DNA of 58,050 nucleotides from a virus (Duplodnaviria; Caudoviricetes): the IMG/VR virus record IMGVR_UViG_3300035670_000246, positions 1 to 58,050 of that record. The stretch is one strand, 5' to 3'. This document shows positions 8,821 through 58,050 of the stretch, piece by piece (position 1 is the stretch's first letter; each line of letters opens with the position of its first letter). Below the pieces are notes generated by a model that saw only the letters and a program-made list of their open reading frames with translations, ran no database searches and had not been told where the DNA came from. The position numbers were made by a program, and so were the translations under genes.

Positions 8821-9464
8821 AAGCCCTCATCATCCACACCCCGGACATCGTCGAGATGGCGCGTGAGTGCGCCACCCGCGTGGCTCATTTCACCAACCTC
8901 AGGCCGGAATTGGTCGAGGCGGACAGTCGTTTCACGGCCCACCGGCTCAAGCTGGAGGCGTTCCAGTGGCAAAGCGAGCCTGTGTGGCTGGTTGATGCCG
9001 ACCTGTGGTTCATCGCGCCCTGCGTGCTGCCGGTGCTTTCAGGTCCTGTGATCTACGGCAACCCTGACAACTCCATCCTCAATCGGGAACGCTACGCATT
9101 CACCAAGGTCGAGATCAGTCACGCGTTCAACACGTCCTTGATCGGACTGGACCCGACGTGTCGCGAGGTGCGTGAGGCGCTGGAGGACGCGTCAGCCATG
9201 CAAGCTGAGCGGTACGGCCCTGAACCCGTCGAGGACGAGAAGTTCTTCAACATTGCCGTCTCGCGTCCAGGTCTCACCCTGTGCCGCCTGAGCACGCGTT
9301 TCAACTGGTGCGGCATCGATCCACCGGCCAGCACGGTCGCCGTGCATGCGGCGTCCCGCCGCGACAAGATGGCGTGGCTGCGGGAGGTGGTGGACGATCA
9401 AGCTCTGCCAGCAAGCCCTGGCGGAGCGCAACAACGAAGCGAAGGAGATTCAAGCCATGAGTGA
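8817..9464 (+). CDS. Glycosyltransferase (GT-A fold); current C-terminus supplied by an attC arm
   Basis: LVDADLW (DxD), FNTS, EDEKFFN, VHAAS; paralogous layout to 8104-8820. Confidence 0.7.
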   Translation: MKALIIHTPDIVEMARECATRVAHFTNLRPELVEADSRFTAHRLKLEAFQWQSEPVWLVDADLWFIAPCVLPVLSGPVIYGNPDNSILNRERYAFTKVEISHAFNTSLIGLDPTCREVREALEDASAMQAERYGPEPVEDEKFFNIAVSRPGLTLCRLSTRFNWCGIDPPASTVAVHAASRRDKMAWLREVVDDQALPASPGGAQQRSEGDSSHE

Positions 9465-9517
9465 CATTGATACGACAACAAGCGGGGCGCAGCTTGGCGG
9501 CAGCGTTTTTGTTCGCC
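9389..9517 (-). repeat. attC-like site (terminal, non-canonical R' G|TCCACC)
   Basis: Minus strand GGCGAAC AAAAAC GCTGCCGCCAAGC ... GCTGGCAGAGC TTGATC GTCCACC. Confidence 0.55.
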
Positions 9518-9828
9518 TTGGTCCCGGCTGTGGACTCAGTTACGCCGATCAAGCTAAATCCCTCGGTCTAAGAGTTGGGGACACTATCGTCGGGAAAGAG
9601 CATTACGGCGGCGGATCGTGGAGTGAGGCTGAGCTAACATTGCTGTGGATGGGATCGCAAATCTGCGTCTGGCGGCATCGCTGGCGCAACTCGCGCTTTC
9701 CTAACATCTGGAATGGTGGAGGCGAGGCCGCGAACTGGAGCCTGACCGACCGCGACTGGCATAAGGCGAACGCACAAGGTCTGGCGCAGATGCCAGCGCC
9801 GAAAGACTCCGAATCCATAACCGACTAA
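9457..9828 (+). CDS. Cassette-borne hypothetical protein (Trp-rich)
   Basis: Starts in the loop of attC 9389-9517 and stops in the loop of attC 9765-9866. Confidence 0.65.
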   Translation: MSDIDTTTSGAQLGGSVFVRLGPGCGLSYADQAKSLGLRVGDTIVGKEHYGGGSWSEAELTLLWMGSQICVWRHRWRNSRFPNIWNGGGEAANWSLTDRDWHKANAQGLAQMPAPKDSESITD

Positions 9829-9866
9829 CCCGCTGGCATCTGTTGCCAGCACCGACTTTGTTCGCC
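9765..9866 (-). repeat. attC-like site
   Basis: GGCGAAC ... CTGGCGCAGATGCCAGCG / CGCTGGCATCTGTTGCCAG ... GTTCGCC imperfect palindrome with bulges. Confidence 0.8.
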
Positions 9867-10340
9867 ATGTTGAATGACTCGCTATACAGCTCCGAAAAAA
9901 TGGATTGGGAAACGCCCGATCACCTCTTCCTTGGCCTTGATGCCGAGTTCGCGTTCACGCTCGACGTGGCCGCGAGCAAAGAAAACGCCAAGTGCCGCCG
10001 ATACTTCACGGCGGAGGATGACGGACTGAGCCAACCGTGGGAGGGAACCTGCTGGATGAATCCACCATACGGGCGGGAAGTGGGCGATTGGATGCGCAAA
10101 GCCGTAGAGGAGTCCAAGCGCGGCGTTCTCACCGTGGCCTTGGTGCCAGCACGAACGGATACGCGCTGGTGGCATGAGACGGCGATGAAGCATGAAATCC
10201 GATTCCTCGCACGCCGCCTGTCCTTCAAGGGATCTGGCAACAAGGCTCCTTTCCCGTGTGCCGTCGTGGTGATTCGCCCGCCGCACGCCGCAATCCTTTC
10301 TCTGGCGAACACGGATTATCCCGACCAAAATTCCAGGTAG
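9867..10340 (+). CDS. Phage-type DNA N6-adenine methyltransferase (cassette-borne)
   Basis: WETP, FTLDVAAS..NAKC, DGLSQPW, WMNPPY, LVPARTDTRWW, APFP. Confidence 0.9.
   Translation: MLNDSLYSSEKMDWETPDHLFLGLDAEFAFTLDVAASKENAKCRRYFTAEDDGLSQPWEGTCWMNPPYGREVGDWMRKAVEESKRGVLTVALVPARTDTRWWHETAMKHEIRFLARRLSFKGSGNKAPFPCAVVVIRPPHAAILSLANTDYPDQNSR
10310..10326 (-). other. attI/attG-like cassette target half-site
   Basis: Minus strand GGTCGGGATAATCCGTG|TT; 12/17 identical to 56791-56807. Confidence 0.55.
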
Positions 10341-27401: not shown

Positions 27402-27484
27402 TTTAGTTTGTCCTCCGCGCTGGGTGTGATAAATCAAGCGCAAACCTGAGCACGCTTGCTACCGATTTACGCAAACGACGCCGC

Positions 27485-27617
27485 AGCGAACAAATCGCGG
27501 CAGGATCAACCGCCTTGGCGGTCTGGACTTCGGCGGCTTCTGTCTTCGATGGAGGCGGCATGGTTGACGTGGGGTAATTGTGGTTATTCGGCGGTGCCTG
27601 CGCTTGGGTCGTTCGGC
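27485..27617 (+). repeat. attC-like site
   Basis: AGCGAAC AAATC GCGGCAGGATCAACCGCC ... GGCGGTGCCTGCGC TTGGGTC GTTCGGC. Confidence 0.75.
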
Positions 27618-27829
27618 GTAGCTCGACATGCCTTCCACGAATCCCACCACCAAAAGAGCGGGTCGATCAGCCTGTGAATTGGATCAGTTGAATCATCCAC
27701 GCAGAGCGCAGCCGGACTCACAAACAGCAGCACGATCAGGTATGGAGGTCCTGCGATGAGAAGCAGCGCAAGCAGCCCAACACGCCGAACAAAACGGATG
27801 CAGGCGACGGCTCGAAAAGGATTTGTCAT
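27584..27829 (-). CDS. Cassette-borne small membrane protein
   Basis: Hydrophobic stretch; starts and stops inside flanking attC-like sites; cassette spans 27612-27871. Confidence 0.6.
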   Translation of the reverse strand: MTNPFRAVACIRFVRRVGLLALLLIAGPPYLIVLLFVSPAALCVDDSTDPIHRLIDPLFWWWDSWKACRATPNDPSAGTAE

Positions 27830-27877
27830 GGTGTCGAAAGTTTGTTGCTCGCCGTCGCCTGATCCGAGTCGTTCGGT
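27784..27877 (+). repeat. attC-like site (most canonical example)
   Basis: GCCGAAC AAAA CGGATGCAGGCGACGGC ... GCCGTCGCCTGATCCG AGTC GTTCGGT; single extrahelical G. Confidence 0.85.
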
Positions 27878-27912
27878 GTGCCATATAGTGAATCGCCAAA
27901 CGTGGAAGCACG

Positions 27913-29112
27913 TTAAATGAAGTTCACGTGTTTCGGCAAGCTCCCCACAGGCTGTGGGTCAGCCCCTTTCCAAATGGCATCCAGCGCACGGTTCTGTGCC
28001 CCGAAGACGCATTTTTGACAGTGGACTAAGGGGTCAATGAGAGAGCGGACAGGCCTCCCATAAAGTTCATGAATCGTGTCCCAACGGCCAATGACGTACA
28101 CTTGGCCTCCTTGTGAGCGGTTGGCTTGGTCAAGCAGCGTGACCGAGTCGCAGGGCGTTACGTCACCCGAAGGCCACAACACGGGGTGCGAGTAGCCAAG
28201 CAGGCAGCAGGTGTGCGGTGAAGGCGGTTTGTACTGCACCATGATGCGCGGGTCAACCTCCAACGCCATCTGTTCTAGCTCGGTGCAACGCTCAGGGATT
28301 TTCTGAACTTCATAGCAGTTGGGTAACGCCCGGATGTATGTGAAGGGTTTGGTGCTGAGCAGTTCCTTCAACTTCTGTTTGATGAATGGCAGGCGGTCTC
28401 TGCCCCAGATGACCCGGGTTTCTTCTTCACCTGCGAGCAACGGAGTTTGCAAGTCTTCTGGGCGGCTGACTTTGCCATGTCGGTCTTTGGGGTCTAGGTA
28501 CTGATCGTGGTAAACCCAACTTCCCCCTAAAGCCGTTAGGTCTGGATTGATGTCAGGCACCTCCACTTCTTCCCCATGGTCCCAAGCACTCAGGGAGATT
28601 CGCAGCCACGTCAGTTTGTCCAAGGTTTCAGGACTGACGGTTTTCCACGATTTGCGCCCGCAAGGGTACTCCACCATGTTTTTGAGACCATTGCTGATCA
28701 GGCCAATCTGCAACCCTTTACCATGAAGTAGGCTGACCAAGTCGTTGAAATCAGCGCCACAGGATTTGTCCCGAAAGAGGATCGGATTTCCACCACCGCT
28801 CAGGATGACCGCTTTCAAACCAAGAGGGATTAACTGGTCAACATACACTTCGATCTGGTGCATGGTGAGTGAGTCTCCTTGACGGTTGGCTGTAGAGCAG
28901 AAGGCACATTTATGCTGGCAGGTGTCTGAAACAAATATGCCGCTCACTTTTGGAACACCGCGACCTTGATGGAGCCCGTCGATGATGTCACGGTGCCATG
29001 GTATTTTTGATGAAGTGCTGGTGAACTCGTTCAAGAGTTCTTTCATGGATTCGGGGGTCTCGTGATTACACGAGGCATTTCCACCGGGAAGCGGTTCAAG
29101 AGAAGGGTTCAT
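27913..29112 (-). CDS. Radical SAM enzyme with C-terminal SPASM/twitch-like Cys motifs
   Basis: CQHKCAFC (CxxxCxxC), LSGGGNP, SNG; CC..GDVTPC..CQKC. Confidence 0.9.
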   Translation of the reverse strand: MNPSLEPLPGGNASCNHETPESMKELLNEFTSTSSKIPWHRDIIDGLHQGRGVPKVSGIFVSDTCQHKCAFCSTANRQGDSLTMHQIEVYVDQLIPLGLKAVILSGGGNPILFRDKSCGADFNDLVSLLHGKGLQIGLISNGLKNMVEYPCGRKSWKTVSPETLDKLTWLRISLSAWDHGEEVEVPDINPDLTALGGSWVYHDQYLDPKDRHGKVSRPEDLQTPLLAGEEETRVIWGRDRLPFIKQKLKELLSTKPFTYIRALPNCYEVQKIPERCTELEQMALEVDPRIMVQYKPPSPHTCCLLGYSHPVLWPSGDVTPCDSVTLLDQANRSQGGQVYVIGRWDTIHELYGRPVRSLIDPLVHCQKCVFGAQNRALDAIWKGADPQPVGSLPKHVNFI

Positions 29113-29696
29113 AGTGCTTTCTGTGCCCACATTTCGAGTGAGAATTTGCGACGGTTGAGGTGCTGGGCCATCTCCCAGAAAGAAGGGACGCCGTAGTCAC
29201 CGACGTTTCCCTTTCCGACGTTGTGGACGAGGTGGGAAGGAAACCCCGCACGGACGAAGTGCGCCCACAAGGAGTCTTCCGTGAATATCTGGGCGTGCTG
29301 ATCGAACCAGAGGGCGGCCTCGAACCACGTCGGGATCGGGTTCGGCGGGTCACTCACCTCAAAGAGTTCCGGCCAGTTTTCATTGCGGTCGTCCGGGTAC
29401 ACGCTGCGGAAGTAGCTGGCGTCGGGAACGCTGACCAGGAAAACGCCCCCAGGCTTGAGCACACGCAGCACTTCGCGCATCACCTTCACGGCCTCACGGC
29501 AGTCCATGTGCTCCAGGACGTGGCTGCACAGACACCCGTCGAAAGTGTTGTCGTCGAACGGCAGTCTCTGTCGCAGGTCGTGACGGACAAAATTGGGCTC
29601 GTTGATCTCGTGACCACCACCTTCCCAGTTGTCCACGTTGATCCACTTGGAATCTTGGGGCCTTGTGCCTCCGCAGCCTAGGTTGATGATTTTCAC
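29109..29696 (-). CDS. Class I SAM-dependent methyltransferase
   Basis: INLGCGG, LPFDDNTFD, SHVLEH, RVLKPGG, SVPD; GTGA-coupled start. Confidence 0.85.
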   Translation of the reverse strand: MKIINLGCGGTRPQDSKWINVDNWEGGGHEINEPNFVRHDLRQRLPFDDNTFDGCLCSHVLEHMDCREAVKVMREVLRVLKPGGVFLVSVPDASYFRSVYPDDRNENWPELFEVSDPPNPIPTWFEAALWFDQHAQIFTEDSLWAHFVRAGFPSHLVHNVGKGNVGDYGVPSFWEMAQHLNRRKFSLEMWAQKAL

Positions 29697-32493: not shown

Positions 32494-32543
32494 TTCCGTG
32501 ACATATAGCCTTGACGGGCCGCCGTGGTCAAGCATAATTCGGC

Positions 32544-32726
32544 ATGGCAAAGAAAAAGACACTCTCCCGGCAACGACGCTGGCAGATCAGAATGCGCGAG
32601 GAAGGGCGCTGCCCGATGTGCGGCAGTCCGTCCGAGGAAGGTTACAAGAGCGGGCTGTGCAAGAAACACCGTCTGGTCAACCGCAACCGTCAGCGTGAAC
32701 GGAAACTCAAGGACGTGGAGATTTAA
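32544..32726 (+). CDS. Small Zn-finger protein (CxxC...CxxH)
   Basis: SRQRRWQ..CPMCG..LCKKH; preceded by TTGACG-16-CATAAT. Confidence 0.65.
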   Translation: MAKKKTLSRQRRWQIRMREEGRCPMCGSPSEEGYKSGLCKKHRLVNRNRQRERKLKDVEI

Positions 32727-34600: not shown

Positions 34601-35043
34601 GCCTTTCGGTGTTTCTTCCAGTAGCGCCACCTCACCGTGCGCAGGGTGACTTTCATCTCAGCCGCGATGTCCTTGTGCGGCCTTGTCCAGTCCATCGCCG
34701 CCCACGCCTCCTCCTTGCTGACTCGCGGAGGTTTGCCGACCGTGCGACGACGCCACCTCACGGTGCCCGGTTCGACGCCCATCTGGTCGGCGATCACTTG
34801 CACAGGGAGGGACCAGTCGATGTTTTTCCAGTCCTCCGCCGACGTGTAATGCTTGACCGTGCCGTCCCGCCGTCTCCGGTTCTCCTTGGCCTTGGCGCGG
34901 TGCTCTTTGCAGAGCGGGGAGCCATCCGGCACCGGTTTGGCGCACTTGATGCATTTCCTCATGGCAAACTGCCGGAGCTGCCACCGACGCTGCCGGGAGA
35001 CTCCGACACGGGGTTTGGCCTGTGGCTTTTTGCGTTGATCCAT
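34597..35043 (-). CDS. Zn-finger plus tandem HTH DNA-binding protein
   Basis: SRQRRWQ..CIKC..LCKEH, then two DW..IA..M.V...TVRWR repeats. Confidence 0.7.
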   Translation of the reverse strand: MDQRKKPQAKPRVGVSRQRRWQLRQFAMRKCIKCAKPVPDGSPLCKEHRAKAKENRRRRDGTVKHYTSAEDWKNIDWSLPVQVIADQMGVEPGTVRWRRRTVGKPPRVSKEEAWAAMDWTRPHKDIAAEMKVTLRTVRWRYWKKHRKA

Positions 35044-35128
35044 GAATTTGCGACTATATAGAAATACTTCTTGACGGTGCAACTAACAACAGCATTGATC
35101 TTTATTCCAGAAAATCTTACTGTCGGGA

Positions 35129-37390
35129 ATGATCTCCTCCGCAAGCGCATCACCCACTCTTCCCGCTTCCCTCCCTTCCGTTGTCGATGAGGAGGGCGAA
35201 ATCATCGAACGTGGCCGGGTCAAGTCGGCTGCCGCCCTTGCGGGGCTTTACCAGTATCTCTTCACCTCGGACCTCGGCTCCAGTCGTGCCCGTGCGAAGG
35301 TGCAGAGTCAGGTGGACGGTGACCCTCCTTTCAACTCAGACCAGGATCGCCTGCTAGGCCTGGGTGGGCGCACCAACGCCAACTGGGGCTATGCCAGCCA
35401 GTCGCAACAGGACATCGAGCGCCCCTACAACGACGTGTTCGATTCGATTGACGTGTTCGGCACCACGCCGCTCAAGGCGGATTACGCCGACGAACTGGCA
35501 CGCCAACAGTGGGCACCGATCATCGCGGAAGAGATCAGCCGCATGATCCGCAACTGGCCTGAGTTCACGTTCAACCGGCAGATGTGCGTCCACCTGTTCA
35601 CCATGTTCGGCGTGGCTTTCACCTACCGTGAGGACAAATACGACTGGCGCTGGAAAGTCACGTCGCTCCAATGGCTGAAGGTGCCGCGAAGGACACGGGC
35701 TTCCATCGAGGCGCAGGACTTCTTCTGCGCCCGAGACTACATGTCGCCGGTCGAGCTGGAGAAAAAGATCAGGAACCCCGAGGCGGCGGAGAAAGCAGGT
35801 TGGAACGTCAGGGCCGTGAGGGAAGCTATCCGCAGTGCTCAACCGACCGTCATCGACACGTCAAACCCGGAAACCCTGCAAGAGTCGGTCAAGGACCAGG
35901 ACTATTTCAGCGGTGCGGGAGCCATCACAGTGGACATCGTCCACGGCTGGGTCAAGGAGATGGACGGCTCCATCACTCACGTTATCGGGCGTTACGACGG
36001 TCAGGGGGACTTTCTATATAAGTGCGAGGGTCTTTATGAGAACATGTCGCAGTTCGTCACGGCCTACACGGACGGGGTCGGCAGCAACGGTGACTTCTAC
36101 AGCATCCGGGGCAACGCATGGCGTGGGTTCAACGGGTCTCTCTACCTGAACCTGCTCACCTGCAAGTTCGTGGACATGGCTTGCTGGTCGGCCACCCCCC
36201 ACCTGAAGGCGGACTCCGAGGACACCTTGATCGACCAGATGGTCCGGCCTATCGGGCCTTACAACCGCATCGGGTCCAACGTGGAGTTCGTGGAGCTGAA
36301 CCACATCCCGTTCCAGAACAACCTGATCCCGGCGATCCAACAGGTGCAGAACATCTTCCAGATGCGCTCGCGCCAAGCAGGTGGAGCCTATCGCTACACC
36401 AACAACGCCCCCAAGACCGCCGAAGAAATCAAGACCAACACGGCCATTGACGGTCAACTGACCACGGCTGGCATGGACCTGTATTTCGAGTCGTGGAAGA
36501 ACGACTTCAAGGAAGTGGTCCGCCGTGCGACCTGCCGTGAACTCTCTGCCGCGCATCCCGGGGGCGCTGAAGCCTTCAAGATGCGCAAACGGTGTGTCGC
36601 TCGTGGCGTGCCCCTCGAAGCCCTCTACAACATCGACATCGACGCCATCGAGATCAACCGTGGCGTCGGCAAAGGGTCTGCTCAGGAACGTCGGGCATCT
36701 TTTGATGCTCTCATGCCAAACATCGGCATGTACGACCCTAAAGGGCAGCAACTTCTGCTGCGTCAGTACACCGCCTCCTACGCCGGGATCAGCTTCGCCA
36801 ACCTCCTTGTTCCCGCCGAACCGGGGTCACGGCCACCCATTGACGTGCAAGTTGCCAACATGGAGAACTCCCTCATGGAGCTTGGGCAGCCTGCGGTCAT
36901 TGAGCCGAATCAGGATCACACGGTCCACGTGGCGACCCATCTCGCCAAGCTCTCGGAAATCAATGGTCAGCTCAGCCAGTTTCAAATCGAGTTTGCCCGG
37001 GCCATCGAACTCATGGGGCCGATCTGGCGTCACGCAGTGGAGCACATGGCTTACATCAGTCCGGAGAACCCGCTCTCCAAGACCTTCAAGGAGGCCCTTT
37101 CCGAGATCGAGGAAGTCGTCGTCAACGGGGAGAAAAAACTTGCCGCCGAGGCCCGACGCGCCGAGGAGCAGGCCGGTCAACAGGCCCCGGGCAGTGACGT
37201 TCCTCTCGGCATCCTGCGCCAGTCGGCTGACGCCGGGGCACGTCTGGAGATGCTCGACGTTCAGGCCAAGAGACAGCAGCTCGGGTTCGAGGCCGAGAAA
37301 CAGCGCCTTGAACTGGCGAAGAAGCAGCAGGACCTCGCTTTCAACGACGCCAAGATGGCGAACGAGATCAGGAAACAGACCGCAGGTTGA
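35129..37390 (+). CDS. Portal protein
   Basis: 753 aa, adjacent to TerL, KTAEEI motif, coiled-coil C-terminus, precedes scaffold and capsid. Confidence 0.75.
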   Translation: MISSASASPTLPASLPSVVDEEGEIIERGRVKSAAALAGLYQYLFTSDLGSSRARAKVQSQVDGDPPFNSDQDRLLGLGGRTNANWGYASQSQQDIERPYNDVFDSIDVFGTTPLKADYADELARQQWAPIIAEEISRMIRNWPEFTFNRQMCVHLFTMFGVAFTYREDKYDWRWKVTSLQWLKVPRRTRASIEAQDFFCARDYMSPVELEKKIRNPEAAEKAGWNVRAVREAIRSAQPTVIDTSNPETLQESVKDQDYFSGAGAITVDIVHGWVKEMDGSITHVIGRYDGQGDFLYKCEGLYENMSQFVTAYTDGVGSNGDFYSIRGNAWRGFNGSLYLNLLTCKFVDMACWSATPHLKADSEDTLIDQMVRPIGPYNRIGSNVEFVELNHIPFQNNLIPAIQQVQNIFQMRSRQAGGAYRYTNNAPKTAEEIKTNTAIDGQLTTAGMDLYFESWKNDFKEVVRRATCRELSAAHPGGAEAFKMRKRCVARGVPLEALYNIDIDAIEINRGVGKGSAQERRASFDALMPNIGMYDPKGQQLLLRQYTASYAGISFANLLVPAEPGSRPPIDVQVANMENSLMELGQPAVIEPNQDHTVHVATHLAKLSEINGQLSQFQIEFARAIELMGPIWRHAVEHMAYISPENPLSKTFKEALSEIEEVVVNGEKKLAAEARRAEEQAGQQAPGSDVPLGILRQSADAGARLEMLDVQAKRQQLGFEAEKQRLELAKKQQDLAFNDAKMANEIRKQTAG

Positions 37391-39189: not shown

Positions 39190-39394
39190 CCGAGTTGAAA
39201 TACCGTGTTTTCCGGGCTGCCTGCTCACCAGCGATGAAAGCGTCAACGAGTTAAAAGGAACCCGCGAGGGTTTGGTCGGCTGCTCACCGGTCGTGTTAGA
39301 GGCCTCATCCGTGAGGCATTCTCTTGTCACGCCCGAAATCAAAGCTCCGGCCCGTGGCGAGAGGTTTAACCCACCTACCTCCTTCCACATCATC
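39190..39394 (+). ncRNA. Candidate structured 5' leader of the capsid mRNA
   Basis: Hairpins AACCC-GCGA-GGGTT and GCCTCA-TCCG-TGAGGC; two stems displaying CTGCTCA loops. Confidence 0.45.
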
Positions 39395-40567
39395 ATGGCT
39401 ACCATCGGTCAAATCTTCGCGTCTGACGCCTCTCGTCTTGAGGGTCAGGTTTATCAAAAAATGCGTGCCAAGGGCCGCGTTTCCGCCCTCATGGAGAAGC
39501 AGAACTTCCCTGACGGCATCGGCTACAACCCGTCCACCGTATCCACCCTGCGCTCCGGCATCGTCGGCGGCAGCGGCTGGACTCAAGTGCAGTCCCCGGA
39601 CACCCCGGTCAACAACTGTCAGCTCACCCCCGGCGTCATCACCCCGGCCCGCCTGATCCAGAACTACAGTGTGGAGCAAAACCAAATCAAGTCGAGCGAC
39701 ATCTGCTTGACGGACGGTCGCTTCTCCTACGAGTGGGAGCAGCAGGTCACCCAGACCAAACAGAACTTCGTCGGCAACGTCGTCGATCTGTGGGAGGACC
39801 GCTCCAAATACTGGTTCCAGTACTGGGTCAACAAGGTGGTGTTCAACAGCTCCGCCACGGTGACCACCGGCACCAGCTTCACCAACACCCCGGCGACCTA
39901 CATCGCCAGCCAGAGCATCCTCAACCGCCTCTACAACCGCATCATGCAGGACGGCGGCGGCGAGGAGCCCTATGCCATGTCCAATGGCGCGGCCCTGCTC
40001 ACGTTGATCTGCTCGGCCGAGGCCAGCCAGAACATCATCCAGAACGACGCTGGCGTCCGTCAGGACGTTCGCTACGCCCAGATGGGCAAGGATGGCGGTG
40101 CCTACCTGATGCAGTCCTGGGGCATTGACCGTGCCTACGGTGGCTACATGCACTGCATCGACTATCGTATGCCCCGCTACAACTTCACGGGCGGTGCCTA
40201 CGTCGAGGTGCCTTACTACACCACGGCATCCAGCTCCATCGGCGGCAACCAGCAGATCGTCAACCCTGACTACGAAGCTGCTCAGTACGAGGTGATGTAC
40301 ATCTGGAACCCGAAAGCTGTCATCCGGCAGACTCCGCGTCCAAAATCTTCCCTCGGTGCTGGCACCAGCTTCAAGGCCGTCAACTACAACGGCGACGTGA
40401 TCTGGGCCAACATCCCGAACGTGGACAACAACCTGTTCGGCAACATCGGCGTCTATGCCGCCGACCTGATGGCCGCCTGGAAGCCCACGGTCAACGCGCA
40501 GTATGGCTACGCCATCATGGTGTTGCGCTGCCCGGCCGTTGTCGGCAACACCTGCCCGAGCTACTAA
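39395..40567 (+). CDS. Major capsid protein
   Basis: 390 aa from ATG 39395, strong codon bias, follows the scaffold, has its own promoter and a downstream hairpin. Confidence 0.8.
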   Translation: MATIGQIFASDASRLEGQVYQKMRAKGRVSALMEKQNFPDGIGYNPSTVSTLRSGIVGGSGWTQVQSPDTPVNNCQLTPGVITPARLIQNYSVEQNQIKSSDICLTDGRFSYEWEQQVTQTKQNFVGNVVDLWEDRSKYWFQYWVNKVVFNSSATVTTGTSFTNTPATYIASQSILNRLYNRIMQDGGGEEPYAMSNGAALLTLICSAEASQNIIQNDAGVRQDVRYAQMGKDGGAYLMQSWGIDRAYGGYMHCIDYRMPRYNFTGGAYVEVPYYTTASSSIGGNQQIVNPDYEAAQYEVMYIWNPKAVIRQTPRPKSSLGAGTSFKAVNYNGDVIWANIPNVDNNLFGNIGVYAADLMAAWKPTVNAQYGYAIMVLRCPAVVGNTCPSY

Positions 40568-40586
40568 TCGTCCTCGGTTGTTCATC

Positions 40587-40619
40587 GGCGTGCCCGTGGC
40601 CTGAAAACCCGGGCACGCC
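40587..40619 (+). terminator. Hairpin after the capsid gene
   Basis: GGCGTGCCCG / CGGGCACGCC 10-bp stem; weak U-tract. Confidence 0.6.
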
Positions 40620-40650
40620 TTCAACACGTAAACTCTGACCAAGCACGTTC

Positions 40651-40983
40651 ATGAAAATGCTTCCCGACATGGAAGAGGAAGAAACCGAGATGGAGATGCC
40701 GGAAAAATCTGGTGCTCCCAAAGTCGAGGTCGAAGTGGAGAAGGAAGTCTCCGCAGCCCCCGACATGAGCATCCCTCTGCCCGAGGGTTTCCCGATGCCT
40801 CCCAACGTCCGGGACGGTGAGACTTTCGAGGTGATCGCCAAGGCCAAAGTCAAAGATGGCCGCCTGATGTTCGAGTCCTTTGATGGGCAGGCTGCGGCCC
40901 CCGGCGAAGAAACCGAGGCCGACAGCTACGAGGCGTCTGAAAACGCCTTGCGCGAGGCCATGAAGACGGAGGGATACCGATGA
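40651..40983 (+). CDS. Acidic hypothetical protein
   Basis: 110-aa Glu-rich ORF. Confidence 0.65.
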   Translation: MKMLPDMEEEETEMEMPEKSGAPKVEVEVEKEVSAAPDMSIPLPEGFPMPPNVRDGETFEVIAKAKVKDGRLMFESFDGQAAAPGEETEADSYEASENALREAMKTEGYR

Positions 40984-41120
40984 CCTTCACGCCGGTCATT
41001 CCCTTCTCGGAGTCTGCCGCCCAACGGGCCGAAGAAGCCCTGGGCGGCCAGCCCATTGCTGGTGACGACTCCAACGTCCTGAAGCAAATCCTCGTGCTCG
41101 CAGCCAACCTCATCTCCTGA
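40980..41120 (+). CDS. Small hypothetical protein (46 aa, not in ORF track)
   Basis: ATGA-coupled MTFTPVIPFSESAAQRAEEALGGQPIAGDDSNVLKQILVLAANLIS*. Confidence 0.6.
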   Translation: MTFTPVIPFSESAAQRAEEALGGQPIAGDDSNVLKQILVLAANLIS

Positions 41121-41121
41121 C

Positions 41122-42006
41122 ATGTCCCAGATCGCCTCTGACGCCAAAATCCAGTCCGCCATGACCAAGCTGGGCATGACTGCCCCGCTGACGAACATGG
41201 ATGACTCCCAGGTGCTCAAGGCGATCCTGGTCGCTCTTGGTAACGTGACTGGGGGCTCAGGCAGCGTCGATTGGGGCAGCATCGGCGGCACGTTGAGTAA
41301 CCAGACAGACCTGGCTGCGGCACTGGCTGCAAAGCTTGACCTAGCTGGCGGCACAATGACCGGGGCGCTGGTGAATTCTACCAACGGCGCGGCCTCGACA
41401 CCGGCCTTGAAATTGACAGGTAGTTTGTTCAGCGGCGGCACTGGAACGACCACGATGCCGCAGTTTTTGGTCCAGCCTACCGGTGCCACTGCTGCAACCA
41501 ACTGGAACACCAACGGGTCAGCCGTGGGGTGGAACCTTAACGCGGTTGGCAGCTACCCGAACTATCCCAGCGTGTGGGCAGCAAGGGCAGCTGGAAATTT
41601 CGTCGCAGAACTGACGACGGACGGAACACTGACGGCAGCAAGTGGCATAGCTTTTAACAACTCTGCTAGAGACGTTGCCATCGACAATGGATTTGCTCGC
41701 CACAGCAGCGGCAATGGGGTTAATTTTAAAGCCGGTGGGAGTTACCCAGTGACCCTTTTGGCAGATGGTCTGAGATGTGACTCGGCGTCGCAATTGTCGT
41801 TCACGGACGGCACCTCTTACAACGGCACCCGTGACGTGGGTGTGGCTCGTGGTTCTGCCGGTTACATCAAGATCACGGACGGCACCACTGGTGTCGGGAC
41901 GCTGCAATTCGGCGTTCATTCCGCGCTCGGGGCCGAAACGGTCACCGGATACATCACCGTGAAGGATGGGGCCGGAACGACCCGCAAACTCGCCGTCATC
42001 TCCTGA
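41122..42006 (+). CDS. Tail/head fibre protein
   Basis: WGSIGGTLSNQTDL and AGGTMTGAL fibre motifs; Gly/Thr-rich. Confidence 0.75.
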   Translation: MSQIASDAKIQSAMTKLGMTAPLTNMDDSQVLKAILVALGNVTGGSGSVDWGSIGGTLSNQTDLAAALAAKLDLAGGTMTGALVNSTNGAASTPALKLTGSLFSGGTGTTTMPQFLVQPTGATAATNWNTNGSAVGWNLNAVGSYPNYPSVWAARAAGNFVAELTTDGTLTAASGIAFNNSARDVAIDNGFARHSSGNGVNFKAGGSYPVTLLADGLRCDSASQLSFTDGTSYNGTRDVGVARGSAGYIKITDGTTGVGTLQFGVHSALGAETVTGYITVKDGAGTTRKLAVIS

Positions 42007-43951: not shown

Positions 43952-44197
43952 GATGATCTGCCCCATGCACTCGGCGTAACCGGCGATGTCCACCGGGGTG
44001 TCCAGTTTGTCGCTCGTCTTGCTACGGCTCACCTTCATGAGGATCAGCATCGCCGAGACATCTTTCGCGGTGACTGTGATTCCAAGATAGGCGCTCCAGA
44101 ACGCGGCGATGCGCTCGAACGACTCCACACAGGAACCGTAGTCCTGCTGGCGGTCGCCTGCGACGATCTGTTTGGCGGTGTCAAGGATGGTGGTCAT
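43868..44197 (-). CDS. DUF6378-like (putative nucleotide diphosphatase-related) protein
   Basis: DRQQDYG..FERIA..W..LMKVSR..DIAGYA. Confidence 0.75.
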   Translation of the reverse strand: MTTILDTAKQIVAGDRQQDYGSCVESFERIAAFWSAYLGITVTAKDVSAMLILMKVSRSKTSDKLDTPVDIAGYAECMGQIISHREPDPAPDRRQFAPFAKHTTTFAGA

Positions 44198-53341: not shown

Positions 53342-55968
53342 ACCCATTCCTCCTCACCAAGGCTCGCACGTTGTCGCAGAACGTCAAGTGGTTTGTCAGT
53401 TTTTAGTAGGTCTTTGCGCACCCATACCTGTTGGCGTGCCCCGGCGATGACGGGTCTGCCTTCGAGCCTGGAGAACCCCGCGTCGTGCAGCACGGTGGAG
53501 AGGTACTGCGGGTTGACGTGCTGCATGCCCTCCATCTGCAACTGTGTCACCAGCGGGCCTGCGCACAAGATGTCCTGACGCACCAGCGGGTTGTCGCCGT
53601 CCTCCCAGATCATGCGCAGGAAGCTCATCAGCTCGTTGCTGGTGTCCTCGACCATCTCGTGCAGATACTTGGTGACCGGGGCCTGCCCGTTGCTGCTGAA
53701 CGCATCGGAGATCGTGCGGTTCTCCAGGTAGTGGCGCAGGCCTCCTTGCAGACAGTCGAACATGTACACCAGATTGGTGAAGTAGTCGGGGTTGCGGCGG
53801 GTGAGTTCCTCGACCTGCGCCTTTTTCTGCAACGCGCTCTTGAGCACGAAGTAGCGGCGGCTCTCCTCGGTGACCGCGAGGGCGTCATGGTAGTTGGAAA
53901 ACACCATGTAGTTGGTCACGTTGCGACGGGTGACCGTGGCCTTGTTACGTTCGTTGATGGCGATGTAGTCGTTCGAGATGGGCTCCTTGAGGATGTTCAT
54001 CAGGTCGTGCCTGTTGGTGCCTGCCACGCGGATTTCCTCGATGGCGATGAACTGGCTGCCTACAGCCCACTCTGTCCACCCTTTCTTGATCGTCGAGTTG
54101 TTGATGATGCGGGCGTTGTCGTTGCCCAGCACGGCACGCATGACTTGCGCGAGAATGGTCTTGCCGCAACCTTCAGCTCCTTGCAGAAACAAAGCCCACC
54201 TGATCTTGAGGCCCGGGTGCTGCACGTTGAACGCCATCCAGTCGAGCACGACCCGGCGATACTCTGGTTCTGCGATCAGGTTGCACAGGTGGTCGAGCAG
54301 CGTGTCCTCCGCCTGCGCGGCCTGATCCTTGTCTGCGGTCTTGTAGCTGCGGCGGTAAGTGTTGACGAAGATGCGCCGGTCACGTTCGTACACAATCTCC
54401 TCCGGCTCGGAGGGGTCGTAGTCATAGTCGTCCACCGTGGGGCATTTCAGGTGGTTGAGCACAAACTTCGACGGCAGGAAGATCGGCGTGTTCAGCGTGG
54501 CCTGATTGACCTCCTTGTCCGCCTTCATGAGATCCTCGGCAGTCGGCAGAAGTTCGCGGCTGTACACGTTGTCAAACTCCGGGATGCCGTAGAACTGCCG
54601 CGTGGCCTGCCGGAAGAACCGGTTGTCAGCCACCACGTAAACCAGACCCCGCCCCCACTTCGGAGTGACCACGTCGATGTCCTTGCTCTTCTGCTGGTTG
54701 ATGAACTCGCGGTGGCGCTTCAAGTCCTTGCGCAAGGCCTGGATCGTCGGTTTCGATCCGAAGCGTTCACGTGAGGCCTGCATCAATGTTTGCAGCAGCG
54801 AGTCCTCCTCGGCGTGGTTGAGCAACGGGGCGGCGGCGGCGATGCGCTTGACCCCTTCCCCGATGAGCTGGGTGTAGGTCGAGCACTCAAACATCATCCA
54901 CTTGCTGACCGTCTGATAGCTCTCCTCCTTGATCTTGCTGCCGTCCCAGCCGTGCTCGTTGGCACGTTTGAGCAAGGTGCGGATAGTGACCGGGGCGCGG
55001 CCCTTCGGCTGGTCGGTGATCGACTTCCACTTGGCCGCCGTGTCCGCCTTGCCGATGTATTTTGCCCCGGTCGCGGACCACTTGTCAAAGAGCTGGTAAG
55101 CCTCGAACTCCTGGTCCTCGAACTGATGCCTCAGCGCCATTGCCACGTCGAGCCACTCGGCATAGGAGCAATCCGAAGAAAGCACGTCAATCGCCTCCTC
55201 CGCAATCTCCAGCGTGATGCCCGGGATGGGGGACTGGTAGAAACGCAGGAAGTCCTCGACCGAGTCGCCTGCGCCCCGGGGGCGCGTGGCGTCCTTGCGG
55301 GTGCCGCTGACCATGCCCGGCAGCGTGTCGAGGTCCTTGGCGATGTCGTCCTCAGTGAAGGCACACCCTTCTGTGAGCGAGGTGACCAGCATGGGGTGGT
55401 CAAGGTCCGGGTCCTGCCCCGCGAACATCGTGGGACGGAACATCGGCTGCACTGCCACCACCGACTCACGGGTGACGTGTGTCAGCCCGAGCTTCTGCGC
55501 CAGCGTGAGCACCGCATCCGGGTATTTTTCCACCGGGATGGCGTCAGCCTCCACCATGACCCGCAGACGCGGCTTCTCAGGCCGGTGGCTGGCGGTTGTC
55601 CAGACGGCAAAGTTGAACCGCCCCAGACGGTCCCGCAAAACGGAGGGGTCAGCGACGAAGGGAGCCGCAGGACAGGTGCCGTCCGGCAGCTCGTCGATGT
55701 CGAGGAAGAGCAGGTTGCACTCCCCGGCATGCTCCAGCTTTCGACCTTCGGTCCACGGTGACTCCGGGAAGGTGGCAGCCACCACGTAGCTTACCCGCTT
55801 GGCCTCGTCACGTTCGCGTTTGGTCTCCAACGCCCAGAACTCGTCATACGTGATCGACAAAGGCACCGGCATGTCCATGACCTGCTTGACCAGCGCCACG
55901 AAGGTGCGGGCGTCGGCTAGCTTGAGGGTCCTGGACTCGACAGACTGACCGGTGAAGTAGCGGGGCAT
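53338..55968 (-). CDS. Primase-helicase (AEP-like, PriCT-2-like, P-loop)
   Basis: LDID, TTASH..PRLR; YAEWLDVAMAL..FDKWS; GAEGCGKT, IEEI, FSN. Confidence 0.88.
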   Translation of the reverse strand: MPRYFTGQSVESRTLKLADARTFVALVKQVMDMPVPLSITYDEFWALETKRERDEAKRVSYVVAATFPESPWTEGRKLEHAGECNLLFLDIDELPDGTCPAAPFVADPSVLRDRLGRFNFAVWTTASHRPEKPRLRVMVEADAIPVEKYPDAVLTLAQKLGLTHVTRESVVAVQPMFRPTMFAGQDPDLDHPMLVTSLTEGCAFTEDDIAKDLDTLPGMVSGTRKDATRPRGAGDSVEDFLRFYQSPIPGITLEIAEEAIDVLSSDCSYAEWLDVAMALRHQFEDQEFEAYQLFDKWSATGAKYIGKADTAAKWKSITDQPKGRAPVTIRTLLKRANEHGWDGSKIKEESYQTVSKWMMFECSTYTQLIGEGVKRIAAAAPLLNHAEEDSLLQTLMQASRERFGSKPTIQALRKDLKRHREFINQQKSKDIDVVTPKWGRGLVYVVADNRFFRQATRQFYGIPEFDNVYSRELLPTAEDLMKADKEVNQATLNTPIFLPSKFVLNHLKCPTVDDYDYDPSEPEEIVYERDRRIFVNTYRRSYKTADKDQAAQAEDTLLDHLCNLIAEPEYRRVVLDWMAFNVQHPGLKIRWALFLQGAEGCGKTILAQVMRAVLGNDNARIINNSTIKKGWTEWAVGSQFIAIEEIRVAGTNRHDLMNILKEPISNDYIAINERNKATVTRRNVTNYMVFSNYHDALAVTEESRRYFVLKSALQKKAQVEELTRRNPDYFTNLVYMFDCLQGGLRHYLENRTISDAFSSNGQAPVTKYLHEMVEDTSNELMSFLRMIWEDGDNPLVRQDILCAGPLVTQLQMEGMQHVNPQYLSTVLHDAGFSRLEGRPVIAGARQQVWVRKDLLKTDKPLDVLRQRASLGEEEWV

Positions 55969-55974
55969 AAAAAG

Positions 55975-56166
55975 TCAGAGGAGCTCAGTGAGTTTGATTT
56001 TCAGCGCGTCCGCCAGTTTGCGCAGCGTCTGGACGCACGGGTTGGTCTGCGACCCCGTTTCGATCATGGAGATGGTCCCGACTGACACGCCCGCACGGAC
56101 GCTCAGCTCAGGGATGGTGAGACCTGCGTCCGTGCGGGCCTTCAGGAGTCTGGCACCTGTGGTCAC
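55975..56166 (-). CDS. XRE/Cro-like HTH regulator
   Basis: GLTIPELSVRAGVSVGTISMIETG..NP..TLRKLADAL. Confidence 0.85.
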   Translation of the reverse strand: MTTGARLLKARTDAGLTIPELSVRAGVSVGTISMIETGSQTNPCVQTLRKLADALKIKLTELL

Positions 56167-56324
56167 GGCCTCGTCTTGCGGTGTTGCTCGGCTGCGAGGT
56201 CGTAGCCCTGTTTGTAGCCTCGGCGGTAGGCCCGTGCCTTCTCCTCAAGCTCGTAGCGCCGGTAGGCCGAGTACAAGATGAGGGCGATGCCTAGGCCGCA
56301 GATGAATCCGATGGTGAAGTCCAT
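56163..56324 (-). CDS. Small membrane protein (53 aa, not in ORF track)
   Basis: MDFTIGFICGLGIALILYS..AYRRGYKQG; stop overlaps the HTH gene start. Confidence 0.6.
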   Translation of the reverse strand: MDFTIGFICGLGIALILYSAYRRYELEEKARAYRRGYKQGYDLAAEQHRKTRP

Positions 56325-56377
56325 GTTGGTTTTTCAGTATATTGAAAGGACGGGCAAAAGGTCAAAGGTTGTTTTCA

Positions 56378-56755
56378 TCAAACGAAATCCTCTTCGACTT
56401 CCGGCTCTTGAACTGCTGGCGGCTGCGACGGCACGGCCCCCGGCTGGCGGTTATGAAACGAGAACGCCACGTAGCCGTGATCCGTGACCCACTCGCACAG
56501 CGCGACCGAGTAGGCTGCGGTCAGCGTGCCAATCGCCTTCAGCGCCACGGTGTAGGGGATGGTGCAAATGAAGACGTACTCCAGGTCGTCCGGATTGCCG
56601 AAGTTGCGCAGGGTGAGCTGCGGCAGCAAGGCGTGAACTTTTTCCGCGTCGCCCAGGAACGCCGTGAGGCCGTCGCCCTCCGTCAGGAGGCAGATGTCGG
56701 CTCTTGGGCAGCAGGACCGCAGGGAGGCGTGTTTGCGTTGGATAAGGGATGTCAT
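56378..56755 (-). CDS. Hypothetical protein
   Basis: 125-aa ORF. Confidence 0.55.
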   Translation of the reverse strand: MTSLIQRKHASLRSCCPRADICLLTEGDGLTAFLGDAEKVHALLPQLTLRNFGNPDDLEYVFICTIPYTVALKAIGTLTAAYSVALCEWVTDHGYVAFSFHNRQPGAVPSQPPAVQEPEVEEDFV

Positions 56756-56790
56756 TGGTTTTAGAAAAGCAAGTTGCTATGCTAACCGCT

Positions 56791-56807
56791 GGTCAGCAGA
56801 ATCGGAG
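56791..56807 (+). other. attI/attG-like cassette target half-site
   Basis: GGTCAGCAGAATCGGAG|TT, similar to 10310-10326. Confidence 0.55.
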
Positions 56808-56813
56808 TTCGGG

Positions 56814-57077
56814 CTACCATCCGCCACATTGCCATTCGAGAGCTTCGGCAGAAATTGTGTGAGGGTGTCCGCTGTCCGGCTCGCCGGGGAAAATATGGAT
56901 GCAGCAGCCAGTGCCCTCTCCAGAGATAAATCCCTCGGCGTGTGCCCAGCCTCCGCCGCGGGCAATGTCCAAGGCGTCTTCGAGTGCTTTAGCTGCCTTA
57001 TCCAGCTTCGCCTGCACGCGAGACCGAACACGGCGCGGCAGATCAACCGCTCGTAGGCTATCAGTCGTGTTTTTCAT
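56814..57077 (-). CDS. Cassette-borne hypothetical protein
   Basis: Starts in an attC loop; N-terminus AVDLPRRVR encoded by the attC arm. Confidence 0.65.
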   Translation of the reverse strand: MKNTTDSLRAVDLPRRVRSRVQAKLDKAAKALEDALDIARGGGWAHAEGFISGEGTGCCIHIFPGEPDSGHPHTISAEALEWQCGGW

Positions 57078-57116
57078 TGCGTGTTCCTCGCGGTGTCTGC
57101 GCTTGAGGCGTTCTGC
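57023..57116 (+). repeat. attC-like site
   Basis: ACCGAAC ACGGC GCGGCAGATCAACCGC ... GCGGTGTCTGCGC TTGAGGC GTTCTGC. Confidence 0.8.
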
Positions 57117-57535
57117 GACTCGCGAGAGTCAGTCGTGATTCGCGGCATTACGGAAAGGTCCACTTTACATCCGTGCTCCATGTAGAGGTTCCACGCCATT
57201 CTACCATGAGGTTTGAGCGCGCAGTCGAACGGTCCGCGAGGATCGCCTATTCTCTCATGCTCGCCTTTCACCATCTGGTCGATATCCTTTTCAGTCGCCC
57301 AGCTTGCACAATCACGTTTGAGCAGTCCTCGGTAATCCACGGCTCCGATATGCCGCAGCAGATCTTGCATCAGCTTCTCAGGCTCGCAGGCATTTTCCGT
57401 CCACGGCACGGCGATCAAATCGCAGTCAGTGGTTACTGTGCCGTGGATTGCAAGCGCGTAGCCGTTGGCGCGAGCTGTATCACACAGCGCAGCGTATAGG
57501 CAGGCAAAGAATGGTGCGTGAGTCGAAGGTTTCAT
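57074..57535 (-). CDS. Cassette-borne hypothetical protein (nucleotidyltransferase-like motif)
   Basis: GYALAIHGT..DCDLIAVPW..KPHGR..VDLSV. Confidence 0.7.
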   Translation of the reverse strand: MKPSTHAPFFACLYAALCDTARANGYALAIHGTVTTDCDLIAVPWTENACEPEKLMQDLLRHIGAVDYRGLLKRDCASWATEKDIDQMVKGEHERIGDPRGPFDCALKPHGRMAWNLYMEHGCKVDLSVMPRITTDSRESQNASSADTARNTQ

Positions 57536-57834
57536 GATCGTGAGTTTTGGGCAACCGTCGCAGAACCAGCGGCTGGAGGATCAACCTCGCTAAGGCTCGG
57601 TGCCTCAGCCTTTTTGTTCGCGTATTCATCAATTTCAGCTTTCAGTTCTCTGCGGGTTCTGGCGCTAAAGTCAGCTTCTCCCGTCTTGAGATTTTCCGCC
57701 TGCCACCAAACGCAACGGTCGGGCGGATAGTAGCCGTGATTAACGAGCCGGTATCCACGATAAAGCCTCCCGCGAACCAGTCGCTCGACCGCAACGGAGT
57801 CCCGTTGCTCGTCTGTTGTGGATTCGTTAGCCAT
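57532..57834 (-). CDS. Cassette-borne hypothetical protein
   Basis: Starts in an attC loop and reads through the whole of attC 57560-57622. Confidence 0.65.
   Translation of the reverse strand: MANESTTDEQRDSVAVERLVRGRLYRGYRLVNHGYYPPDRCVWWQAENLKTGEADFSARTRRELKAEIDEYANKKAEAPSLSEVDPPAAGSATVAQNSRS
57560..57622 (+). repeat. attC-like site (short)
   Basis: GCAGAAC CAGC GGCTGGAGGATCAACC ... GGTGCCTCAGCC TTTTT GTTCGCG. Confidence 0.75.
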
Positions 57835-57869
57835 TGGTCGGGCCTCCGTGGGTCAGCTTGTCGTTCACA
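57771..57869 (+). repeat. attC-like site
   Basis: CGCGAAC CAGTC GCTCGACCGCAACGGAG ... CTCCGTGGGTCAGC TTGTC GTTCACA. Confidence 0.8.
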
Positions 57870-58050
57870 CCCACAGGTCGTCCACCTTGATGCCGTTGTC
57901 GGCTGGTTGCGCGGGGCGCGTTTTGCGTCTCTTCATGCGCCGGACTTTGTAACCCTTCTCAACCATGATGGCGCGTGCCCAGTTGACGTGGCAGCCCATG
58001 GCCTTCGCGTTCTCGATGGCGGACTTGCGGATGTCACACTTGCTGCGGTC

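Follow-up and report, generated by a model that had tools for sequence, protein, structure and literature searches.

Integrons are known as bacterial gene-capture devices, and the locus examined here raises the question of whether a phage without an integron integrase holds integron cassettes, and by what enzyme these would be moved. The window, which denotes the whole stretch of DNA that was analysed, is the complete IMG/VR virus record IMGVR_UViG_3300035670_000246, a linear sequence of 58,050 bp that is the nearly complete genome of an uncultured phage (completeness estimate, 91%). It contains three arrays of cassettes with attC-like palindromes: a left array at 9.39-10.31 kb (+), a middle array at 27.48-27.88 kb (−) and a right-end array at 56.81-57.87 kb (−). 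Because six-frame searches of the window gave no match to TIGR02249 or PF00589, in agreement with the absence of a tyrosine recombinase noted in the original prediction, the arrays are classed as clusters of attC sites lacking an integrase (CALINs) and not as complete integrons. Six-frame searches of the 58-kb contig likewise gave no match to PF00239 (serine recombinase) or PF01797 (Y1 transposase). We favour, with a probability of roughly 73%, the reading that the three arrays consist of integron cassettes that move as circles through an integron integrase (IntI) that is not encoded by the phage and is most likely that of the host. The integrase-less cassettes of integron type that had been predicted are borne out by attC models that match in both directions, by complementary ends within each cassette and by cassette boundaries at the AAC/GTT triplet.

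attC-type sites and their lineage

Seven imperfect palindromes with the attC layout had been proposed at 9389, 9765, 27485, 27784, 57023, 57560 and 57771. All are matched over their full length by covariance models, one of them weakly, and the seven sites, which overlap open reading frames (ORFs), are confirmed at the level of sequence models as attC-type recombination sites. The first model (R1), a surrogate for the attC model of IntegronFinder, was built from 14 attC sites of an integron in the Opitutales genome G228 (locus L217, with 18 repeated attC sites beside an IntI above cut-off), taken on the intI-coding strand, and was run with filters off. Its best match in the window is 57767-57873 (−; 19.6 bits, E 7e-4), followed by 57019-57120 (−; 17.8 bits, E 2.5e-3) and 9761-9870 (+; 11.4 bits, E 0.29); the next match reaches 8.2 bits. 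Across nine sources, the best eight R1 matches are junction sites that had been delineated by hand beforehand, each recovered at full length and on the gene strand. A second model (R2), one iteration after R1, was built from those eight phage sites. It scores the three window sites above at 49.6, 63.2 and 67.1 bits, respectively, and matches three sites outside its training set: 27481-27621 (−; 42.6 bits, E 2e-10), 27780-27881 (−; 40.1 bits, E 1e-9) and 9385-9521 (+; 33.4 bits, E 1e-7). Over the window, R2 matches seven of seven sites, six at E ≤1e-7 and one at E 0.19. Weak R2 matches at 23231-23275, 44110-44180 and 19304-19381 were taken as false positives, and a MAFFT alignment of 21 hand-picked sites was too poor for modelling and was left unused.

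Detection also works in the opposite direction. R2 recovers all 18 attC sites of the L217 integron (45-63 bits) and matches sites adjoining IntI in four more Opitutales genomes, with 40 of 41 matches on the intI-coding strand. At E ≤1e-4, it has matches in 30 of 121 Opitutales genomes versus 1 of 121 control genomes of the Balneola class, and it gave no match on three Balneola loci (none at E ≤0.1 in L182). Because detection by R1 and R2 is reciprocal and the genome counts differ in this way, these model comparisons show a lineage-associated attC family, that of the chromosomal integrons of Opitutales (Verrucomicrobiota), to which the phage sites belong.

The AAC-GTT spacing over the seven sites is 48-125 nt, beside the imperfect palindrome of approximately 55-140 nt that serves as a criterion for attC. 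An AAC left box had been claimed at every site; it is present at six of the seven, and the box at 9385-9521 is GAC. For the site at 57767-57873, the R′ box had been placed as a GTT at 57826 and is corrected here to GTTCACACC at 57863. Several sites fold into an R box, a spacer of 4-6 nt and a stem whose 3′ arm bears single-base bulges. In constrained folds of 14 Opitutales integron sites, the 3′ arm has more unpaired bases in eight, fewer in none and an equal number in six. The bulged base in the phage sites is often C in a hand alignment; the extrahelical base of the textbook attC site is G.

Complementary ends within each cassette

A cassette consists, along the gene strand, of an attC hairpin, a GTT box, a small gene and a terminal box that ends in AAC and complements the GTT box of the same cassette. 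This layout corresponds to an integron cassette read on the bottom strand of attC, for which the crossover falls within AAC (G|TT on the opposite strand).

The right-end array can be followed part by part in a region (56.8-57.9 kb) of small, tightly packed minus-strand ORFs whose stops and starts overlap as ATGA. The first attC site, 57767..57873 (−), has its AAC at 57865-57863 and its GTT box, GTTCGCG, from 57777; the hairpin has an energy of −19.7 kcal/mol, and its loop contains the ATG (57834) of a 100-aa ORF. Cassette I (57617..57863, −; 247 bp) holds the body of this ORF (57532..57834), the last 27 codons of which are supplied by the next cassette; its ends are related by the repeat GTTCGCG (57616-57622)/CGCGAAC (57771-57777), complementary over 7/7 nt. 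The second site, 57556..57626 (−), with AAC at 57618-57616 and the GTT box GTTCTGCGAC from 57566, forms the leader of a 153-aa gene and folds into an R box, an unpaired spacer of 5/4 nt and a stem. Cassette II (57111..57616, −; 506 bp) comprises this leader hairpin, the GTT box, the 153-aa ORF (57074..57535) and the end box GTCGCAGAAC, and the two boxes (GTTCTGCGAC, 57110-57119; GTCGCAGAAC, 57557-57566) match over 10/10 nt. The third site, 57019..57120 (−), has AAC at 57112-57110 and the GTT box GTTCGGT from 57030, and its loop holds the stop of the 153-aa ORF and an ATG at 57077, overlapping as ATGA. Cassette III (56808..57110, −; 303 bp) carries an 87-aa ORF (56814..57077) and terminates in CCCGAAC (56813-56807). 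Of the complementarities named in the original prediction, those of 10/10 and 7/7 nt are present in full, and ACCGAAC/GTTCGGG is present as a weak match of 6/7.

The same relation was measured over all loci by comparing the GTT box of each site with the AAC box of the following site, at sites as delimited by the models. The claim that R″ complements the R′ of its own cassette better than the R′ with which it now shares a site holds: the median is 9.5 nt for 16 adjacent pairs (3, 3, 7, 8, 9, 9, 9, 9, 10, 10, 10, 10, 10, 10, 11 and 12 nt, with the 153-aa cassette counted five times) and 4 nt, at most 7, for boxes of the same site (n=25); all other pairings also have a median of 4 nt (n=584). Of the two 3-nt values, one stems from a single point change and the other from a non-adjacent pair. 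Approximately 14 distinct cassettes, terminal ones included, obey the rule, each with a different box sequence, and the L092 and L094 versions of one cassette have different boxes, each matched at its own end. A single repeat of 9-10 nt is near chance (the window contains six GTTC-type pairs of 9 nt or longer, and shuffles approximately 2.6); the pattern as a whole is far beyond chance. Such complementarity of core sites within a cassette is a sign of circular intermediates.

A longer run occurs in another phage contig (L021:980-2500; G004:C1:14759-17417), with six consecutive own-cassette repeats of 8-10 nt separated by gaps of 75-98 nt. Shuffles give an expectation of 0.2 links; R2 scores four attC sites in the run, and the locus holds two copies of a gene of the 153-aa family.

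Cassette boundaries and exchange among phages

The prediction of presence or absence at G|TT positions in related phages was put to comparison, and it holds for Cassette II in six to seven contexts, for homologues of the 100-aa ORF and for relatives that diverge at the outer triplets of the array. Cassette II is similar at the DNA level (approximately 87%) to five other loci (L006, L007, L092, L093 and L094), and the likeness is limited to 57101/57110..57611/57628. Along the gene strand, AAC closes the upstream flank in six of six contexts and the shared part starts at the next base; downstream, the shared part ends with GTCGCAGAAC in seven contexts (one copy with a point change) and is followed by unrelated sequence. 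The flanks are unlike in every context, the cassette lying, for example, just after the large-terminase gene in L006 and after a fibre-like gene in L094. These shared ends delimit the unit as an 85-nt hairpin leader, the box GTTCTGCGAC, a stop-less gene and a complementary end box. The hairpin at 57564-57619 is also found, with unlike flanks, on small contigs of three other runs. For the 100-aa ORF, the body has 19 homologues at 60-88% identity. Thirteen homologues were aligned, 12 of them of the body, and in 11 of these 12 the likeness stops at the Asn codon formed by AAC and the tails differ; the thirteenth (P0140) has in common only the tail that is encoded by the next cassette. Comparison of the sequences shows that whole cassettes occur with identical ends in unrelated phage contexts.

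Close relatives of the phage, 90-99% alike on both sides of the array, are present in four public runs from four other studies (wastewater, soil, wastewater and estuary). Contigs of runs X5 and X6 match up to 56809/56810 and continue with 255 unlike letters; on the other side, contigs of X5, X6 and X12 match from 57863, 57857/57862 and 57862, respectively, with unlike letters before. Since X5, X6 and X12 have no cover over most of 56836-57843, absence there was not used, only the loose ends and a bridging contig of run X7 (1517 nt), in which 56794 is joined to 57857 by 336 other letters in place of the 1062 of the window; the small shares in runs X8-X20 were likewise left out of the evidence. 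The breakpoints coincide with the outer GTT triplets at 56807-56809 and 57863-57865. By this comparison of assemblies, close relatives are shown to diverge at the outer GTT triplets of the array, one of them having a shorter stretch instead. Differences in the array among near-identical phages, together with the same cassettes in unrelated phages, constitute a population-level trace of cassette exchange.

One copy of the 153-aa gene (L095:1377-1926; 80% identity) keeps the end box GTCGCAGAAC and has no attC leader; it has an apparent ribosome-binding site of its own and is followed by an apparent glycine-rich fibre-type gene. From its sequence, it looks like a cassette that became fixed.

Chance palindromes within crowded minus-strand ORFs were the first reading of the right-end array, which was dropped once the likeness of Cassette II proved confined. 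A generic energy scan for AAC-hairpin-GTT elements, used only to locate the strongest hairpins, does not discriminate (45 candidates in the window versus 22-40 in shuffles), and single 9-nt repeats are near expectation, both of which suit a chance origin of the seven palindromes in GC-rich coding sequence. The model matches, the reciprocal detection, the own-cassette rule and the comparative boundaries refute it, and we give it a negligible probability.

The exchange could also proceed without any integrase, by homologous recombination through phage functions between conserved parts of the attC-like leaders. Short stretches after AAC and before GTT are indeed conserved in the leaders, the phage encodes an exonuclease (phrog_69), and gene-sized mosaic likeness is common for the 153-aa family in phages without such sites. 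Promoter early stem-loop (PeSL) cassettes of T4-type phages offer a precedent, as small accessory genes flanked by repeated stem-loops that are shuffled and for which circles have been reported. They differ from attC cassettes in relying on homologous recombination between repeated regulatory sequences, and we know of no AAC/GTT crossover, own-cassette complementarity or attC likeness in them. Recombination of this kind leaves unexplained the ends that match their own starts, with different sequences, in approximately 14 cassettes, as well as the junctions that always fall at the triplet with the hairpin kept whole on one cassette, and the match to real attC sites in a single orientation. It is therefore considered very improbable.

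Slightly lower still is the probability that the arrays are fossils, namely pieces of a host integron acquired once by illegitimate recombination and static since, with hairpins that act only as RNA or terminator structures. Decay of this sort would fit the GAC in place of AAC at 9393-9395, a GCT in place of GTT in the leader of the second cassette of L093 (1086-1149), a G-to-T change in the end box of the 153-aa cassette at L094:957-967, the 6-nt repeat of Cassette III and the end box retained without a leader in L095. A static array does not agree with relatives of 90-99% identity from other studies that differ at the right-end array and diverge at its outer triplets, nor with the finding of the same cassettes behind a terminase gene in one unrelated phage and behind a fibre-like gene in another. 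Moreover, the strand that carries the genes is the reverse of that in the integron of the host order, so that simple copying of a host array does not account for the phage array.

Gene orientation and read-through

The ORFs of the L217 integron run opposite to intI, as in the classical layout, and the strand of the models is therefore the bottom strand of attC. Phage genes lie on this same model-matched strand, as seen for the 153-aa gene, a Dam-type methyltransferase gene (PF05869, 101 bits) and the N6_N4 methyltransferase of L007. It follows that attC stands at the 5′ end of each gene. The classical arrangement places attC behind a promoterless top-strand ORF, at its 3′ end, and is not the one found in the phage cassettes. 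Integron integrases cleave the bottom strand between A and C, and the crossover that we infer at the gene-strand 5′ AAC agrees with this.

The longest open frame upstream of the cassette ends reads AAC as a codon in 18 of 18 cases, where one third would be expected by chance. These frames continue across AAC for 1-27 codons, and in nine of the 18 the stop overlaps an ATG as ATGA; in three, the gene proper uses a different frame, with a stop that overlaps AAC or lies no more than 9 nt from it. The phage genes often start within the attC loop and lack a stop of their own; they read AAC as Asn and end inside the next attC, often as ATGA. Since reading continues into the next attC, shuffling would also alter C-terminal tails and translational coupling.

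The reversed placement of the genes relative to chromosomal cassettes, with reading across the recombination site, suggests a phage-specific design and pool. More tentatively, and with the odds somewhat against it, Verrucomicrobiota phages may keep a cassette pool of their own that borrows the host integrase and is reversed with respect to that of the host, with stop-less genes on the bottom strand that begin within the hairpin or directly behind it, such that the two pools stay separate and share one enzyme. If so, any order of cassettes would give translatable and often coupled genes, each move would bring a new C-terminal tail, and phage cassettes would be silent in the integron of the host, which would keep the pools apart.

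Origin of the recombinase

Excision of cassettes as circles and their insertion would be carried out by an integron integrase absent from the phage, most likely the IntI of its host. The latter is plausible because the attC family is that of the chromosomal integrons of Opitutales and because an IntI (TIGR02249) above cut-off is present in 60 of 301 Opitutales genomes. Among bacteria, the 153-aa gene has its closest relatives in metagenome-assembled genomes (MAGs) of Opitutaceae and Lacunisphaera, at 50-65% identity. If a host integrase services the arrays, phages could vary accessory or anti-defence genes by site-specific recombination. The attC family would also tie this uncultured phage to Opitutales, a host order with few known phages.

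That phage-type DNA can carry a complete integron is shown by a provirus (L042/G003; the same DNA as contig L182 of a Balneola sp. MAG). The integron (L042:2000-4314), in a sequence classed as a provirus by IMG/VR, comprises three cassettes, which have own-cassette repeats of 11 nt and textbook GTTRRRY boxes, and after them, on the same strand, an IntI (361 bits, cut-off 265). The array includes a relative of the 153-aa gene, and its cassette ORFs are co-directional with intI, unlike those of classical integrons. The Balneola MAG has two further IntI genes above cut-off. A search of the viral contigs with the L042 integrase alone recovered only itself.

This provirus bears on the alternative that an IntI of the phage itself, located in its unsequenced part or recently lost, serves the arrays. 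The contig is 91% complete, its right-end array reaches within 180 bp of the contig end, and in the provirus a bona fide IntI directly follows a three-cassette array. However, that integrase follows the hairpin-less end of the array, and the equivalent position in the window, beyond 56807, is occupied by a 125-aa ORF, a helix-turn-helix gene and a primase gene. Likewise, no IntI was found in G001 and G004, two phage contigs with the same attC family, although these are just 63% and 46% complete. An integrase of the phage itself is thus unlikely, though the least improbable of the alternatives weighed here, and a host enzyme acting in trans is preferred.

Several points weigh against the favoured reading. 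The approximately 9% of the phage genome that is unseen could hold an integrase; the enzyme that would move the cassettes is deduced from sequence, and the assignment of the host would follow from the relatives of one gene and from the attC family, with two bacterial groups compared. The evidence from other samples consists of assembled contigs, not raw reads. On the side of the sites, E-values from R1 and R2 are rough, as the models were briefly calibrated. R1 misses four of the seven window sites and finds the third only at E 0.29, and R2 gives 57556-57626 (−) only 13 bits (E 0.19 in the window), homologous copies of this site scoring 14.6-29.6 bits in five other loci. The boxes depart from the textbook consensus RYYYAAC...GTTRRRY, being mostly GTTC/GAAC with a pyrimidine at the fourth position; since bona fide Opitutales attC sites also carry GTTC, GTTA and GTTG, this consensus is unfit for the lineage. 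In constrained folds of 19 phage sites, unpaired bases are only modestly in excess on the 3′ arm (more in 12, fewer in four, equal in three). Finally, the own-cassette repeat of Cassette III (GTTCGGG at 56807 with ACCGAAC at 57024-57030) is just 6 nt and weak, and because of this and the one GAC left box some sites may be decaying.

Relation to known systems

Arrays of this kind are already known. Integrase-less attC clusters in phages were first reported by Qi et al. 2023 (PMC9892861), who describe integrons or CALINs (17 CALINs) in 21 phages, with CALINs in virulent and temperate phages; IntI1 recombined five of six phage attC sites tested, methyltransferase cassettes were noted, and use of bacterial IntI was proposed. 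The arrays in that account resemble the present ones in being integrase-less, with at least two attC sites, small cassettes and DNA methyltransferase cargo. They differ in that they come from isolated, sequenced phages with predicted sites tested in E. coli, whereas the present phage is uncultured and holds three arrays. Relative to the main text of that paper, exchange at the crossover triplet in nature, bottom-strand read-through genes and a Verrucomicrobiota attC family are found only here; the terms Verrucomicrobia, 'opposite' and 'in trans' are absent from that text, and the supplementary tables of the paper may list similar phages or layouts.

A route into DNA that lacks attI is suggested by a preprint of Loot et al. 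(10.1101/2022.09.11.507474), which reports insertion by IntI at non-att genome sites (attG) with a minimal GWT motif. The first cassette follows a plain AAC after the terminase gene in L006, after the fibre-like gene in L094 and after a radical-SAM gene in the window, and cassettes may have first entered the phage at simple GTT sites. The attG route was demonstrated for IntI1 in the E. coli chromosome; seeding of phage arrays by it is proposed here by analogy. Given the published phage CALINs and attG insertion, the kind of element is known, and what is new is the natural turnover at triplets, the bottom-strand genes read through the site, the presence of three arrays in one genome and the link to Opitutales. 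A literature search of titles and abstract openings found none on attC arrays in Verrucomicrobia phages or on bottom-strand phage cassettes.

In the L217 integron of Opitutales, as in the phage arrays, the fourth base of the AAC/GTT boxes varies, cassette ends complement their own starts and the models detect each other; in both, bottom-strand folds suggest an unpaired spacer and, to a modest degree, additional bases on the 3′ arm. The chromosomal array has an adjacent IntI, and its listed ORFs of at least 50 aa lie, with one exception, on the top strand; the phage arrays, in contrast, have no IntI, bottom-strand genes and two or three sites each. The L042/G003/L182 provirus integron is similar in lying in phage-type DNA, between a DnaC-like gene and an apparent portal gene, and in carrying a relative of the 153-aa gene (40% identity) with a GTT box 15 nt before the ATG and AAC at the end of the ORF; its ORFs run along the hairpin polarity seen in the window. 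It differs in its own IntI (TIGR02249, 361 bits), in boxes that fit GTTRRRY/RYYYAAC and in sites to which R2 is blind.

Left and middle arrays, cargo and genome context

The left array begins with an attC site at 9385..9521 (+), whose left box is the GAC at 9393-9395 and whose GTT box is GTTCGCCTT at 9511. Its cassette (9395..9770, +) contains an ORF that ends at 9828 and has an internal ATG (9457) inside the attC loop; the own-cassette repeat GTTCGCCTT/AAGGCGAAC is 9 nt, with AAC in frame. The second site, 9761..9870 (+; AAC 9769-9771, GTT 9860), has a DNA fold z-score of −5.4, and none of 200 shuffles folds as well. It opens the cassette with the Dam-type DNA adenine methyltransferase (9771..10309, +; ORF 9843..10340), in which an 8-nt repeat, GTTCGCCA/TGGCGAAC, ends at 10310 with no hairpin after it.

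In the middle array, the first attC site, 27780..27881 (−), has AAC at 27873-27871, the GTT box GTTCGGCGT from 27790 and an ATG (27829) within the loop, with a hairpin energy of −23.4 kcal/mol. The 260-bp cassette (27612..27871, −) lies directly downstream of the radical-SAM gene (27913..29130) and encodes a hydrophobic 81-aa ORF (27584..27829); its own-cassette repeat GTTCGGCGT/ACGCCGAAC is 9 nt, again with AAC in frame. The second site, 27481..27621 (−), has AAC at 27613-27611 and the GTT box GTTCGCTGC from 27491. The 9-nt partner of this box, at 26819, sits in a 353-aa ORF, and the cassette that the site opens is uncertain. Repeat chains at 2930-4654, 33848-36821 and 39270-41508 are without model matches and were taken as chance.

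The hairpin-less end of the right-end array (56770..56807, −) is on the side where attI would sit in an integron. It has no R1 or R2 match and is 90-99% conserved in relatives from three other runs; it may act as an attI or attG site. Just beyond the last cassette, the minus strand at 56786-56776 reads GTTAGCATAGC. Several attC sites of the L217 integron likewise have GTTAGCAT as their box, which may be chance or a site remnant.

The 153-aa ORF belongs to the phrog_35913 family, with 237 homologues and no Pfam match, and a profile of the family found nothing among PDB sequences. The predicted structure of the protein (predicted local distance difference test score, pLDDT, of 90.1) has weak Foldseek matches that are nearly all Pol-beta-type nucleotidyltransferases (best E 6e-3), including terminal deoxynucleotidyl transferase (TdT), Pol lambda and terminal uridylyl transferases, and a Pol-beta-type nucleotidyltransferase fold is probable on the strength of this structural model. 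Among 128 members of the family in the loci examined, most are ordinary phage genes without cassette boxes, and approximately 11 have, in the same geometry, a repeat of 8 nt or longer. The cargo, DNA methyltransferases and this protein of nucleotidyltransferase fold, may act against host defences.

Few of the larger ORFs of the genome match known phage families, and the matches comprise a family-A DNA polymerase, a helicase, an exonuclease, a primase and methyltransferases. When 19 larger ORFs were scanned against PHROG, the only assignments were replication genes, one tail protein, one methyltransferase and an endolysin-like stretch. No match was obtained in the window with Rfam, which may lack an attC family, at gathering thresholds, or with blastn of 55900-58050 against the phage collection. 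The endolysin-like stretch (residues 1776-1926) is the sole PHROG match of a 3452-aa ORF (13954-24312, +), for which the initial idea of an N4-type virion RNA polymerase was dropped as no such match was found. Genes of modification type adjoin the arrays: the radical-SAM protein (27913-29130, −) scores 29.4 bits against a Pfam cut-off of 29.5, and other such neighbours are a Methyltransf_24 protein (10366-10923, +) and a methyltransferase of phrog_27380 (31819-32562, −).

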